The notes beneath the pieces are model-generated. The model worked only from the letters and a program-made list of their open reading frames with translations. It had not been told where the DNA came from and ran no database searches. Position numbers and translations under genes: made by a program. A stretch of DNA of 37,917 bases. It comes from a virus. Positions 15,771 to 32,977 of the stretch are shown piece by piece. The stretch lies in IMG/VR virus record IMGVR_UViG_3300045988_130903. The stretch is one strand, 5' to 3'. Position 1 is the stretch's first letter. The number at the start of each line of letters is the position of its first letter.

Positions 15771-15844
15771 TTGGAGGGAGTGGAGAATGTTGCAATCTCG
15801 CTCAAGGTGTTGCAGACCTTTGCCTTACTTCTTGGCTACACTCC
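15771..15844 (-). tRNA. tRNA-Cys(GCA)-like gene with encoded CCA and a non-canonical D/T-loop elbow
   Basis: Hand fold: GGGAGUG/CACUCCC 7-bp acceptor, D stem GCC/GGC, anticodon stem AAGGU/ACCUU with loop CUGCAAC, T stem GAGA(U)/(U)UCUC with loop UGCAACA, then U-CCA. Confidence 0.6.
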
Positions 15845-15859
15845 CATTTGAAGAAGAAA

Positions 15860-29392: not shown

Positions 29393-29974
29393 TTAAAAAT
29401 CAGTTTTGAACATAGGGTTGATTTTTATACCCTCACTTGTTGACTTGCCCTCTGCAGGTTTGCTTTCTTGAATATCAGGCATATCACTTAACTCATTTTT
29501 GTTTTTAAATATGTCTGTGCTATCTTTTGTGATAGTTTCAAAAATATCTTTAGCAGATTTGCCAACATTTGCTTTATCTTGTAAAGCAGTTTTTACTTCG
29601 TTAATGATTGCATTTTTTGTTCTTTCATTAACAAATTCTTTATCGCCAATTGCCTCTAAAACATTTTTAGTAAGAACTTCATCAAGATTCTTTTTGTCCT
29701 CGGCTTCTTTTCTTTCCTTTTCTTTTGTTTCATAATCAGCAATCTTTGATTTTAGACTTTCTATTTCATCAGATTTTGGTGCATTATTGATTTGTTCTTT
29801 TAAATCATCAATCGTTCCTTTTAAATCTTCATTTTCTTTTCTCATATCATTTTGAACTTTTTCAGTTTCATTTTTAACACTTTTCCCGTGTTCGGCTAAA
29901 ATAGATTTAATTTCTTCTTTTGATAATTTAATCTTATTTTCTCCAATTTCTAAATTCTCTAAAAAATCTTTCAT
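29393..29974 (-). CDS. Capsid scaffolding protein
   Basis: Acidic coiled-coil protein of 193 aa, immediately upstream of the capsid gene. Confidence 0.75.
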   Translation of the reverse strand: MKDFLENLEIGENKIKLSKEEIKSILAEHGKSVKNETEKVQNDMRKENEDLKGTIDDLKEQINNAPKSDEIESLKSKIADYETKEKERKEAEDKKNLDEVLTKNVLEAIGDKEFVNERTKNAIINEVKTALQDKANVGKSAKDIFETITKDSTDIFKNKNELSDMPDIQESKPAEGKSTSEGIKINPMFKTDF

Positions 29975-30136
29975 ATAAATATCTCCTCCCTCGATTTTTT
30001 CAAGTGGTCTACTCCACCAAGAATTTAATATTTAAACCATCTTAAGCAATCAATGGTTGTAGCCTTTAGGTCATGAGTTCAAGACTTGCACTTGATTAAT
30101 CTCTTTAGTACTCATGATAAATAAAAAGAACTCAGA

Positions 30137-30265
30137 CTATTTGTCTTGGTTCTCTAAATTGTGGAACTCTATCAATTTTTTACAATGTCGGCACATTATT
30201 GAAATAATACCTTTGAATTTGCCTTTGAATAACAATTTGCCACACATACAACGATATTCTTTCAT
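30137..30265 (-). CDS. Com-like zinc-ribbon protein, 42 aa (below track cutoff)
   Basis: Hand translation MKEYRCMCGKLLFKGKFKGIISIMCRHCKKLIEFHNLENQDK. Compare phage Mu Com MKSIRCKNCNKLLFKA...IEIRCPRCK. RBS AAAGGTAGG. Confidence 0.55.
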   Translation of the reverse strand: MKEYRCMCGKLLFKGKFKGIISIMCRHCKKLIEFHNLENQDK

Positions 30266-30288
30266 TAACTCGCCTACCTTTATATCAC

Positions 30289-30458
30289 TAAATAGATTAT
30301 ATCATATTTATTAAAAAAAATCAAATATATAAAATTAGGAATAATATAATATAAATAATTAATAATATATTTAATAATAATTAATATAAATAATAATAAA
30401 TAATATATATACAGATACAGATGTATACCTACGGTATAGATAGGGTATAGATAGGGTA
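30289..30458. repeat. Second origin-like module: diverged copy of 10188-10315 in intergenic DNA
   Basis: Shares TAAATAGATTATAT (30289-30302 = 10188-10201) and ATACAGATACAGATGTAT (30409-30426 = 10266-10283). About 110 bp of almost pure A/T. TACGGTA/TAGGGTA/TAGGGTA at 30430, 30441 and 30452 (11-bp phasing). Confidence 0.6.
30296..30324 (-). promoter_or_regulatory. Promoter TTGATT-17-TGaTATAAT upstream of the Com-like ORF, scaffold and capsid genes
   Basis: Minus strand reads TTGATTTTTTTTAATAAATATGATATAAT. Confidence 0.5.
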
Positions 30459-30493
30459 TTTATTTTTGTCCATTTTTTTATCAAATAAGCCAC

Positions 30494-30518
30494 AAAAAAA
30501 CAACCATTTAAGGTTGCT
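30494..30518 (-). terminator. Rho-independent terminator
   Basis: GCAACC-UUAAAU-GGUUG followed by seven U on the minus strand. Confidence 0.55.
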
Positions 30519-30600
30519 TAATTTCAAATACATCAGGGGTATGTTATCCAAATACACTTCACATACACTATCAACAACAATAATCTTTCTAATGTGTCAA

Positions 30601-30629
30601 ATTATACTTAATTATTATGTTTTTAGCAA
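30601..30629 (-). promoter_or_regulatory. Possible internal promoter TTGCTA-17-TATAAT
   Basis: Minus strand reads TTGCTAAAAACATAATAATTAAGTATAAT. It overlaps the 3' end of the tRNA-like module and would give a ~100-nt RNA ending at the 30494 terminator. Confidence 0.3.
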
Positions 30630-30702
30630 GTGGGTGGGCTCGAACCACCATTCAATTTTAGGTTGACAGCCTATTATCTACTCATAAGGTCGCCCAGAGT
30701 AG
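30626..30702 (-). ncRNA. tRNA-like three-hairpin module without an acceptor stem
   Basis: Minus strand: CUACUC-13 nt-GAGUAG; UAGG-CUGUCAA-CCUA; canonical T arm GGUGG-UUCGAGC-CCACC. No complementary 5'/3' acceptor strands. Confidence 0.5.
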
Positions 30703-31127
30703 CCCCTAGAAAAATCTTATTATGATTAAAATTGTATCTTTAATAGATACTGATACTAAATAATAAAATCTTTCGTCACTTCTCTGTCTAGAATTGTTTT
30801 TATTGTTATCTCGAGTTCAATAAAATATATTCGTCTGAGTTACCTTTAATTAGAATACGTCTAATTGTGTTCCTTTATTATTTAGTATCACTACCTACTA
30901 GAGATAGTCCATATAATCATAATATAGGTACTTATTGTCCATAAAGATGAATTGCTACATCAAGTGGAACTTGACTTACTCCATTCTGGAACACATTTAC
31001 AGACTACTAGTTTTTATAAGCACCATAGAATAAATAAGTCCAAGCTATTAAAAGACAAGCAAGTTTATAGATACATACGATTATCATCTTGCGTTATTGC
31101 GTAAGTTATAGTTTTATTTATTTATTC
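30626..31127 (-). ncRNA. Candidate large structured non-coding RNA (~0.5 kb; may extend to the terminator at 30494)
   Basis: Strong promoter upstream and no credible ORF. Perfect 17-bp long-range helix 30874-30890/30751-30767. Hairpins at 30848-30866, 30734-30750 and 30960-30974. tRNA-like 3' module. Confidence 0.45.
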
Positions 31128-31133
31128 AATTTA

Positions 31134-31162
31134 ATTATATCACTTTAACTTGCTTTTTGCAA
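31134..31162 (-). promoter_or_regulatory. Promoter TTGCAA-17-TGaTATAAT driving the non-coding unit
   Basis: Minus strand reads TTGCAAAAAGCAAGTTAAAGTGATATAAT. Confidence 0.65.
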
Positions 31163-31163
31163 A

Positions 31164-31325
31164 TCATTTTAGTTCTTCCATTTCTTTTATTTCCTCAATA
31201 TTTAATTCAATTCCATTTATTATAATTGTATTATCTTCTTCATAATATTCTTCAAATAATCCTTCAAATATTTCTCCATCAGTTAATACAACTCTTACAT
31301 TTTTGTTAAATAATTTTAAATTCAT
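31164..31325 (-). CDS. Acidic 53-aa protein, translationally coupled to the MuF gene (below track cutoff)
   Basis: Hand translation MNLKLFNKNVRVVLTDGEIFEGLFEEYYEEDNTIIINGIELNIEEIKEMEELK. ATGA overlap with the MuF stop. Confidence 0.5.
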   Translation of the reverse strand: MNLKLFNKNVRVVLTDGEIFEGLFEEYYEEDNTIIINGIELNIEEIKEMEELK

Positions 31326-32977
31326 TCTTTATCACTCCTTTTTCGTGCTGGTGTTATATGAACACCATTTTTTGAATAATGTATAGTAAACGAATTTGTA
31401 TCTTCATTCATTATAATTTCGTCATTATCTTTCAAAATATATTTACCAACATTTTCATTTATTGTAATAATTTCTTTGTTTACTAATTCTCCTTTTTTAG
31501 AAGCAATTATACGTCCTTTTCCAGCGTATTCATTAACTAATTCTTGTAATTTATCGATATTGGAATATTTATCATTAAAATAACTTTTGCCAACTATATA
31601 TTTTTCACTATTTTTTATATGTTGAAGTTGCTTATCTTTTTTTATTGTTAAATCTATCTCTCCATTTTTTATTTTTTCTTGTCTTTTTCTTGCTTGAATA
31701 TATAAACTCGTGTCTTTATATAAGTTACCAGTATTATACACCTTTTGAACTCTTTTTTCAACATTTTTAGTACTAACTTTTCGATAACTGCTTACCGACA
31801 TTCTTTGCTTTTGAGTAGGCAATCCACTAACCTGTGATAATTGTTTGTATTTAGTATTTAATTGTGTAATTCTTAATTGGCTTTTTAATACTTGTTCTTC
31901 ATCCCCACTCGCTTTAGCTAATATTTGTGTATCTTTTTCTTGCCTTATAGCAGTTTCAATTCTTCTTTGTAATTGAGTACCTTCATACATATTATAAGTC
32001 TTGCCATCAAATTCAAATGTTTTATTCTTATTATCAATTATTTCTTTTAATTGCTTATCACTATATTGTGGTTTGCTAACTCCCAATACGATTGAAAAGA
32101 TATAATGAAAACAATTCATGGTACTGATAGGTCTAAAATTATCTTTTATTCTTATATCAATCACTTCACCATTATAATCGGTAGCAACACCTGTTGATTG
32201 TAATTTTTCATATTCTTTGTTTGAAAATTGGTGTCCTTGAACATTACTATGATCTGGTGCTGGATTTAAATGGGTAGATATTTCTACACCATCACTATCA
32301 AATTCTTTACCAAATAGTTGTTGGCTTTCGTTTGATACTTGTCTCATACTATCAAGTATATTCATTCTTATAGAAGTATCTAATCTTCTTGAATAACCAC
32401 TCTCATATTCTATTTTACGAACTCCTGATGATGATAATTGCTTTAAAGTGCTTCTCATTGCTTGCTGATAAGTTTCTTTGCCTTGGCTGATAGCAACAAC
32501 ACATTTATCTATTACATATTTGTATGTTTCATCAATGTCTAGTAGCAAAGGTTCTCCATTATCTCCTAAAAGCCTAAAACCTGTGCTTTTAGCGATGTTT
32601 TTAAATTCTGCACCACTTATACTATAAACACTAGAAACAAGCCTCTGGAGTGCTTTATTCTCGTTATAGATAGGTGTTTCAAGTCCTCTTGCTTTATAAT
32701 AAGTATCCGCAAATCCAATGTTCTCTTTTGCGACTTTTTCTAGTATCGCTTTTAAGTCTTTAACAGACAACCCACTAATTTTAGATAACTCATCTAATAA
32801 ATCCTTGATAGTTGTATTGTATTTTAGTTGCTGTGCTAAGGAATATGCTTGGCTTGGTGTCAAATCTTTAAATTGCTTGATAACATTTCCTAATTCTTCT
32901 AATACTTTTGTGTTATAATCTTGAAATCTTTTGTCAAATACACTTAACAACTTTTCTTGTAATTCTTCACTTAACAT
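31322..32977 (-). CDS. Minor head protein (SPP1 gp7 / Mu F family) with a C-terminal ~150-aa extension
   Basis: STHLNPAPDHSNVQGHQFS...FRPISTMNCFH core, then a long C-terminal region ending ...FTIHYSKNGVHITPARKR. Confidence 0.8.
   Translation of the reverse strand: MLSEELQEKLLSVFDKRFQDYNTKVLEELGNVIKQFKDLTPSQAYSLAQQLKYNTTIKDLLDELSKISGLSVKDLKAILEKVAKENIGFADTYYKARGLETPIYNENKALQRLVSSVYSISGAEFKNIAKSTGFRLLGDNGEPLLLDIDETYKYVIDKCVVAISQGKETYQQAMRSTLKQLSSSGVRKIEYESGYSRRLDTSIRMNILDSMRQVSNESQQLFGKEFDSDGVEISTHLNPAPDHSNVQGHQFSNKEYEKLQSTGVATDYNGEVIDIRIKDNFRPISTMNCFHYIFSIVLGVSKPQYSDKQLKEIIDNKNKTFEFDGKTYNMYEGTQLQRRIETAIRQEKDTQILAKASGDEEQVLKSQLRITQLNTKYKQLSQVSGLPTQKQRMSVSSYRKVSTKNVEKRVQKVYNTGNLYKDTSLYIQARKRQEKIKNGEIDLTIKKDKQLQHIKNSEKYIVGKSYFNDKYSNIDKLQELVNEYAGKGRIIASKKGELVNKEIITINENVGKYILKDNDEIIMNEDTNSFTIHYSKNGVHITPARKRSDKE

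Follow-up and report, generated by a model that had tools for sequence, protein, structure and literature searches.

A phage head-gene cargo slot with separately inherited RNA modules, among them a predicted tRNA-linked three-way-junction RNA

The window analysed here is a complete 37.9-kb contig (37,917 nucleotides, nt; IMG/VR record IMGVR_UViG_3300045988_130903) of an AT-rich tailed phage in which all genes lie on the minus strand, and our subject is a ~1.19-kb gap within its head module. Upstream of the gap lies the gene of a MuF/Phage_min_cap2 protein (31322-32977, minus strand) with an Ntox50 toxin domain at its C-terminus, followed by an open reading frame (ORF) of 53 amino acids (aa; 31164-31325, minus strand) that encodes an acidic product and overlaps the end of the MuF gene; downstream lie the scaffold gene (29393-29974) and then the major capsid gene. 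Ntox50 is a predicted RNase toxin of the BECR fold (PMC3482391), and the 53-aa product is probably its immunity protein; one relative (locus L002) encodes the same MuF protein without the toxin domain. The original prediction had described the gap as almost free of ORFs, which is what we find (its minus-strand ORFs are all ≤42 aa), and had read the interval 31162-30494 as a single large structured RNA, possibly of the ROOL or GOLLD class. The interval does prove to be non-coding, with a predicted promoter and terminator of its own and evolutionarily conserved RNA structure; it is not one coherent RNA, however, and consists of separately inherited modules, with near-identical phages lacking the region or carrying other cargo in its place.

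The sources of the related contigs are gut metagenomes of pigs and humans, and the window's own contig (ERZ27229772 k119_272867) was recovered among the related loci as L026. The nearest cultured relatives are Anaerostipes phages, with a capsid identity of only 53%. No match was found by blastn of 29900-31400 against 50,697 GenBank phages; thus, no cultured phage in that set carries the region. Across the related loci, the ~640-nt interval is a mosaic in which the modules that we call E1, E2, and E3, and a small hairpin, M3, are each found alone in other contexts (all module coordinates below refer to the minus strand). In this comparison, the parts that recur elsewhere were taken as ~31037-30928 for E1, 30908-30741 for E2, and 30710-30536 for E3. 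A leader of ~96 nt, E0 (31038-31133), is confined to window-type phages, nhmmer finding it only in 99%-identical contigs (L018, L019, L023, L024, and L026). Module boundaries are 20-180 nt, and no long-range pairing joins the modules, the helix inside E2 apart. Folding energy of the whole unit is weakly unusual (z = -2.16, 20 shuffles). From these comparisons, the predicted transcript is a chain of separately inherited modules and not a monolithic RNA.

The two ends of the interval are more constant than its contents. The entry promoter (TTGCAA-17-TGaTATAAT, 31162-31134), a sigma-70-type sequence with a TG extension that the original prediction had already pointed out, was recovered in our consensus scan and is 80-97% conserved in L002, L003, L017, L020, and L022, whatever cargo comes after it; promoter-like patterns as such were not enriched in the scan (20 found vs. 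19 expected). The exit terminator (AAGCAACC-TTAAAT-GGTTGTTT and a T-run, 30491-30519) had likewise been predicted as a hairpin with a U-run, and the terminator scan places it at 30519-30498 plus the T-run; terminator-like sites were enriched (6 found vs. 0.4 expected). It is 92-97% identical in ~30 related loci, with RNA or protein-gene cargo, and also lies 3' of E1 in L022, L063, L099, and L138. In the gap alignment, the entry promoter, the exit terminator, and the 5' untranslated region (5' UTR) of the scaffold gene (30064-29975) are common to nearly all relatives.

Between these constant parts, contigs encoding an identical 53-aa protein have gaps of 441, 696, 835, 1179, or 1190 nt, and in two of them (L017 and L021) the RNA region is missing completely. 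L022 and L025 have a genuine tRNA-Gln(UUG) (70.5 bits) just 5' of the same terminator, an HNH homing endonuclease gene occupies the slot in L003 (3113-3619), and RHH + Pyr_excise, PAPS reductase, N6_N4 methyltransferase, or DUF1064 genes are the cargo in L027, L035, L038, L043, and L044. No remnant of the L003 HNH gene was found in the window by tblastn. The cassette is therefore accessory, since close relatives do without it or carry other cargo in the slot. On this comparative evidence, the predicted promoter and terminator belong to the slot and not to one particular RNA, and the slot between the MuF and scaffold genes appears as a general, hypervariable cargo hotspot, which accounts for a position that had been thought unusual.

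Conservation is best documented for E1 (30927-31024), a predicted ~100-nt three-way-junction RNA defined by covariation and by a covariance model, R1, which we built from a MAFFT/RNAalifold alignment. The alignment gives four helices: P1 (9 base pairs, bp; 31024-31016/30935-30927), P2 (12 bp; 31004-30992/30949-30937), P3 (5 bp; 30991-30987/30983-30979), which is the invariant hairpin UUCCA-NAA-UGGAG followed by UAA, and P4 (5 bp; 30975-30971/30963-30959). R1 matched the window at 30918-31037 with 129.6 bits and recovered all members at 77-140 bits; it accepted seven new ones among 100 pattern hits that were mostly chance matches. In the 19 distinct homologous sequences, some of them down to ~70% identity, 97.3% of cells are standard pairs, and both sides have changed in 14 of the 31 pairs (39 cells). 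None of 500 shuffled controls reached the observed value on any of five measures, pairing fell to 31-51% when partners were moved by 1-3 columns, and a structure-blind MAFFT alignment returned the same picture of covariation. Because G-U pairs are frequent, the RNA can be assigned to the window's minus strand. A hairpin noticed earlier at 30960-30974 is helix P4, which covaries; for a bulged helix that had been drawn between 31033-31041 and 30927-30936, the 3' strand was right and the partner wrong, the pairing supported by covariation being P1. The window copy has everything that marks the family, i.e., P1 to P4, the invariant hairpin, and a self-complementary N-CUAG-N' box.

This box, ACUAGU in the window (31006-31011), lies in the P1/P2 junction and reads ACUAGU in 13 copies, UCUAGA in five, and CCUAGG in one, so its flanks covary and the palindrome is kept. 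The covarying flanks suggest RNA-RNA self-pairing; a palindrome serving in DNA is the less likely reading. Pairing of the E1 box with a box at the start of the long helix described below was ruled out, being not conserved. A search of genomes with a 17-base E1 pattern returned 71 hits, about the number expected by chance, and only one (L099) passes the covariance model; it lies in a 539-kb gut-metagenome-assembled genome labelled uncultured Bacilli, just 5' of a set of HNH, small terminase, and large terminase genes. Two further loci carry E1-like pieces: a "mini-E1" in L054 (8842-8885), in which P1 is closed by a GAGA loop, and a segment of L148 (1441-1570), where AUAGAAUAGAUAU/AUAUCUAUUCUAU form P1 and are directly followed by the opening part of a second E1.

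The second module, E2 (30735-30906), is a long-helix domain recognized as an inverted repeat (I1) and by folding, with a basal helix of ~34 bp that encloses ~105 nt. The perfect 17-bp pairing reported earlier (30874-30890 with 30751-30767) is the core of this 33-nt, 88% complementary inverted repeat (30735-30767/30874-30906); it dominates the minimum-free-energy folds (z = -5.0 for 30728-30912), and the hairpin proposed inside it (AATTAGA-CGTAT-TCTAATT, 30848-30866) is present. E2 copies in L044, L056, and L061 are 96% identical, and their one-sided changes keep the pairs. A long helix of 25-35 bp starts directly after E1 in L053, L060, and L063, and a short way downstream in the window (27 nt), L062, L055, and L022. 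In the window, L022, L053, L060, L062, and L063, its 5' box (C)UAGUAGGUAG pairs with the 3' box CAGUAUCUAUUA, and the tips (30-105 nt) that the two enclose are unrelated; L055 is an exception, with CUGCUACUAAUGAUAUA in place of the 5' box and the 3' box bulging out. Folding z-scores of the long helices range from -2.4 to -8, and are -5 or lower in five of the seven. Since the window's E2 is one such domain, E1 and E2 together (~31024-30735) belong to what is, by prediction, a recurrent two-domain RNA of ~220-310 nt.

The 3' strand of the long helix overlaps the M3 box (CAGUAUCUAUUAAAGAUAC, 30734-30752), which can alternatively form a small hairpin (CAGTATCTATTAAAGATAC); this is the hairpin GTATCT-ATTAA-AGATAC that had been noted at 30734-30750. 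M3 is common to L002, L003, L020, L056, and L061, where the variant GUACUU-AUUA-GGGUAC (L056 and L061) keeps the hairpin, and in L022 and L063 it stands immediately 5' of tRNA-Gln.

All loci with E1 are phage contigs or a prophage-like region (L099), and E1 lies on the same strand as tRNAs and within ~300 nt of them in L022/L025, L054, L057, L063, and L136/L144. Its 3' neighbour within 300 nt is tRNA-Gln in L022, L025, and L063, and tRNA-Met in L136 and L144; in L054 and L057, a tRNA of 91-93 nt lies immediately 5' of E1. Most E1 copies keep a 5' flank, UAUAUCUAUUCUA, that equals the 3' acceptor strand and trailer of this upstream type of tRNA. The tRNA association named in the original prediction is thus borne out for the E1 family in phages, and it is the same habit that had suggested ROOL or GOLLD. 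An intrinsic terminator follows E1 directly in L027 and L059 and at 65-400 nt in 11 of the 18 other listed loci (L136 and L144 counted as one sequence). Judged from these predicted terminators, directly or soon 3', E1 behaves as an RNA gene. As to the unusually long tRNAs of L054 (8937-9029) and L057 (2417-2507), they score 43-45 bits, and ARAGORN calls Arg-ACG in L054 and is silent in L057; a second piece 3' of E1 in both loci (9160-9250 in L054) has an acceptor-like GGGAAA/UUUCCC helix and a T arm and no anticodon arm.

The chief competing explanation, possible but on balance unlikely in our estimation, is that E1 works in cis as a leader of late genes. Alone or joined to the long helix, the nascent RNA would alter RNA polymerase or bring in a phage factor, so that transcription from the slot promoter or a late promoter reads past the terminator into the packaging and head genes. 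By analogy, such a leader would resemble lambda PR'-6S RNA-tR', nut/N, and HK022 put RNA, the last of which is a precedent for RNA that alone can make RNA polymerase terminator-resistant (PMC9378689). E1 is usually intergenic just 5' of terminase genes (L053, L055, L056, L060, L061, L062, L063, L099, and L151) and in the window precedes head genes; the order promoter, structured RNA, terminator, late genes recurs in the window, L022, L027, L059, L062, L063, L099, and L138. In L053, L055, and L151, no terminator separates E1 and its long helix from the next gene, into whose 5' UTR they continue; in L056 and L061, none was detected in the 600-940 nt before the next ORF. E1 is co-oriented with the downstream protein genes except in the lineage of L054 and L057, and that lineage speaks against a leader: its unit of tRNA, E1, hairpin, tRNA-like piece, and terminator is opposite in direction to all neighbouring genes and faces convergent ones, so that it has nothing to regulate. 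The near-identical phages L017 and L021, moreover, manage without the whole region. Strong consensus promoters 3' of the terminator in L003, L020, L027, and L059 make read-through unnecessary there, sharing a unit with tRNAs is what stable-RNA operons typically show, and no candidate antiterminator protein was identified.

The interval ends, as had been proposed, in a tRNA-like module. E3 (30536-30706) is a discrete 171-nt element with GGGG...CCCC ends (GGGGCUAC...ACAUACCCC) and with copies in other phages, and it sits where relatives carry a real tRNA-Gln (L022, L025, and L063); in L054 and L057, the position is held by the acceptor-like, T-arm-bearing piece. Three hairpins had been predicted at 30626-30702, and all are present: a D-like arm, a mimic of an anticodon arm (UAGG-CUGUCAA-CCUA, 30659-30673), and a canonical T arm (GGUGG-UUCGAGC-CCACC, 30633-30649), the last two also visible in the alignment to the Rfam tRNA model. 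An acceptor stem is lacking, as the original prediction had it, four of seven pairs being formed and three mismatched. Against 30625-30703, the Rfam tRNA model (RF00005) scores 15.7 bits (E = 6.5; gathering threshold 29). Of the internal promoter suggested at 30629-30601, the pattern does match, but its hexamers lie inside a long predicted hairpin of the conserved E3.

E3 is 95-98% identical in nine phage contexts with unrelated flanks, the other copies (L002, L007-L011, L015, and L016) being intergenic before terminase genes; such constancy requires either selection or very recent transfer. The nine copies differ at ~13 positions, where most stem changes keep pairing and two break pairs. Those that preserve pairing comprise one compensatory change from G-C to A-U and several G-U/A-U switches; a stem pair of the anticodon arm is changed from G-C to A-U in L007. 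Folding of E3 is not unusual relative to shuffled sequence (z = -0.71), comparative support for a structure is found neither for E3 nor for E0, and nhmmer together with an E3 covariance model (R2) returned no divergent homologues in ~0.5 Mb of related loci. Covariation thus bears out conserved structure for E1 and for its architecture with the long helix, but not for E3 or E0. The exact pattern of the E3 T arm had no hit in 185,579 species genomes and only three in metagenome contigs; E3 is therefore not a copy of the end of a host tRNA or transfer-messenger RNA (tmRNA) gene, and there is no attB-type match. A match in L013 is a chance one inside a coding region. The idea that E3 serves the adjacent Ntox50 RNase toxin as a decoy is weakened by L002, which has E3 and a MuF protein devoid of the toxin domain.

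These copies bear on a further explanation, which we regard as improbable: that the region is evolutionary debris, a tRNA island in decay, scarred by recombination, in a slot that homing endonucleases keep turning over, and conserved through recent shared ancestry and not for a function. The extreme mosaicism, with its closely spaced boundaries, is what debris would look like; the same slot of L003 houses an HNH endonuclease, and the surroundings of E1 often hold tRNA remnants (a leftover acceptor strand, UAUAUCUAUUCUA, and truncated mini-E1 hairpins). By its score, E3 is a failed tRNA, and the E2 and E3 copies, at 95-98% identity, allow no demonstration of selection. Against this stand the four helices of E1, kept through 14 compensatory pair changes in copies down to ~70% identity, its invariant P3 hairpin and covarying palindrome, the long helix rebuilt with different sequences, and E3 itself, nearly identical amid unrelated flanks. 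On comparative grounds, pure debris is excluded for E1, and it remains for E2 and E3.

The original prediction had allowed for a conserved coding frame across the region. We find no coding signal: E1 indels are not multiples of three, and its substitutions are compensatory. Hidden coding, or a DNA element such as a packaging site, replication origin, or operator, is in our view hardly credible as an account of the region. An antisense ORF of 41 hydrophobic aa is conserved in all E3 copies, the CTAG-centred palindrome of E1 could be the binding site of a protein dimer, and pac and cos sites, too, lie where E1 usually does, 5' of terminase genes. The antisense ORF, however, shows eight non-synonymous changes vs. 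one synonymous change, which led us to reject it as a type I toxin-like peptide, and has no usable ribosome-binding site because its AGGGG is 1 nt from the ATG. The many G-U pairs on which E1 relies turn into mismatches when read on the opposite strand or as duplex DNA, and E1 is found in the head-gene slot and beside tRNAs too, away from terminase genes.

Membership of the interval in a known RNA family was not borne out. When the window was scanned against Rfam 15 (cmscan, gathering threshold), the region drew no hit, ROOL and GOLLD included; relaxing the cutoff to E ≤ 10 for 29900-31400 added only noise (mir-9437, CC0734, a PreQ1 fragment, and Toga_5_CRE), and the related loci likewise gave no ROOL, GOLLD, tmRNA, or YrlA match. 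ARAGORN reported no tRNA and no tmRNA, standard or permuted, in the region, and Rfam gave no tmRNA there at E ≤ 10. YrlA (RF02553) had no match in the window at E ≤ 10 and reached only 17.4 bits in L054 (threshold 69). The E1 family is absent from Rfam 15; it may be among the 8,495 candidate structured RNA models, without names, that Fremin and Bhatt (2023; PMC10690425) mined from IMG/VR, which include tRNA-like candidates and 14 upstream of large-terminase genes, and which share with E1 their source (IMG/VR gut phages) and size range (29-151 nt). We regard E1 as a new family of a known kind, that of tRNA-linked structured phage RNAs.

That the whole ~640 nt form a single large ornate RNA, of the ROOL/GOLLD class or equivalent, as first proposed, now seems very unlikely. 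Size, phage context, and tRNA linkage do resemble the description of those classes, RNAs of Firmicutes phages and prophages that are often beside tRNA genes and possibly co-transcribed with them (Weinberg et al. 2017, PMC5737381), and the window, L022, and L063 all show E1, the long helix, a tRNA or tRNA-like element, and a terminator in that order. Beside the failed Rfam searches, however, each module stands alone elsewhere and E0 is unique to the phage type of the window; a terminator comes directly after E1 in L027 and L059; and E2's internal helix is the only long-range pairing.

Several other features were noticed in the window. A perfect 11-nt direct repeat, GGTATAGATAG, is present in 2.5 copies at 30433-30459 and adjoins AT-rich degenerate repeats at 30324-30409; this repeat module (30324-30459) is common to L001, L002, and L043. 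An ORF of 42 aa with a CxxC...CxxC zinc ribbon (30137-30265, minus strand) has a weak PHROG match to "gpCom control of modification" (E = 1.9e-4) and an extended -10 promoter of its own (30324-30296). The zinc-ribbon module (30334-30064) occurs in L017, L021, and L044-L050, is missing from L003, L020, and L022, and adjoins the scaffold 5' UTR on its upstream side. This 5' UTR (29975-30064, minus strand) is 98-100% identical in ~25 related contigs despite differing upstream cargo; it holds two hairpins and may serve as a translational operator. At 31088-31105 on the plus strand, a terminator-like hairpin, CTTGCGTTATTGCGTAAG, with a T-rich tail pairs well only on that strand, which has no genes. 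Elsewhere in the window (15775-15845, minus strand), the Rfam tRNA model scores 48.4 bits and ARAGORN reports none; this sequence has CUGCAAC (Cys GCA) as its anticodon loop, an atypical T loop, and an encoded CCA.

The late operons of lambdoid and HK97-like phages contain morons, inserted autonomous units of promoter, gene, and terminator; the concept is due to Juhala and Hendrix. The reading that we favour, at roughly even chances, is that the interval is a non-coding cargo cassette of this kind, making stable, tRNA-linked small RNAs from the slot that has the MuF-toxin/immunity genes on one side and the scaffold gene on the other. The conserved promoter (31162-31134) would give an untranslated transcript of ~640 nt that ends at the slot terminator (30519-30498), the modules being made as one precursor in the style of a tRNA operon. 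Host RNases would then process it: RNase III could cut the ~30-bp long helix, and RNase P or Z could cut at the tRNA or tRNA-like end. This would leave stable small RNAs with a role in trans while the phage infects the cell or is lysogenic. The functional core would be E1, which may pair with itself through its CUAG box, and E3 is a tRNA-like element, itself no tRNA, in the place of the tRNA-Gln, tRNA-Met, or other tRNA-like piece of relatives.

Several points weigh against this cassette reading. Transcript ends, processing, and stability are what we infer from sequence. The structures of E2 and E3 have almost no covariation support because their copies are 95-98% identical, and E3 offers RNase P no recognizable acceptor helix, its folding being no better than that of shuffled sequence. 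In all lineages but L054/L057, E1 points the same way as the late genes downstream of it, and about one-third of E1 copies have no terminator before the next gene; on these two counts, a cis-acting leader fits equally well. The palindromic box of E1 could also act at the DNA level.

A bolder extension, speculative and rather doubtful as we see it, is that E1 and the long helix are a new class of self-associating phage RNA, of which two or more copies would pair through the N-CUAG-N' box; the resulting particle, produced from tRNA-type operons, would act in trans, e.g., on tRNA metabolism or against host defence. ROOL, GOLLD, and OLE are homo-oligomers by cryo-electron microscopy (PMC12286853); if the extension is true, E1 and the long helix would be akin to these RNAs in kind, and small and tractable. 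E1 is, in any case, a much smaller RNA of the same kind as ROOL and GOLLD; it is well supported by covariation, and it suits experiments through its invariant hairpin, its mutable self-complementary box, and the natural presence/absence variants in near-identical gut phages. As a practical gain, gut phage genomes can now be annotated with a new covariance model, and a caution is that such gaps are not to be taken as one large RNA.

Like ROOL and GOLLD, the interval would yield non-coding structured phage RNA beside tRNAs, and the palindromic box of E1 hints at self-association. Its conserved unit, however, measures ~100 nt for E1 and 220-310 nt when the long helix is counted in, against ~580-800 nt in those classes; there is no match in sequence or structure, E1 has one junction and no demonstrated pseudoknots, and the rest are swappable modules. 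Species 1 and 2 RNAs of phage T4 are small stable RNAs in a tRNA gene cluster, presumably matured by tRNA-processing enzymes. The likeness to them, structured RNAs beside phage tRNAs with some tRNA-like features, is one of description: the host group here is low-G+C gut Bacilli, and processing is what the cassette reading predicts. With lambda PR'-6S RNA-tR' and HK022 put, the interval shares a promoter-proximal structured RNA followed by an intrinsic terminator ahead of late genes; it differs in that no Q-, N-, or put-like features were identified, and E1 also occurs in units without downstream genes (L054 and L057). The resemblance to phage morons lies in a predicted promoter and terminator of its own, both conserved in relatives, insertion between two head genes, and variable presence with alternative cargo in the slot, as the gap of 441-1190 nt beside an identical 53-aa neighbour illustrates. 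Whereas classical morons encode proteins, the cargo here is RNA only; a head-module slot of the kind known for protein morons can thus carry RNA-only cargo, and tRNA, tRNA-like element, and protein genes appear to be interchangeable there.

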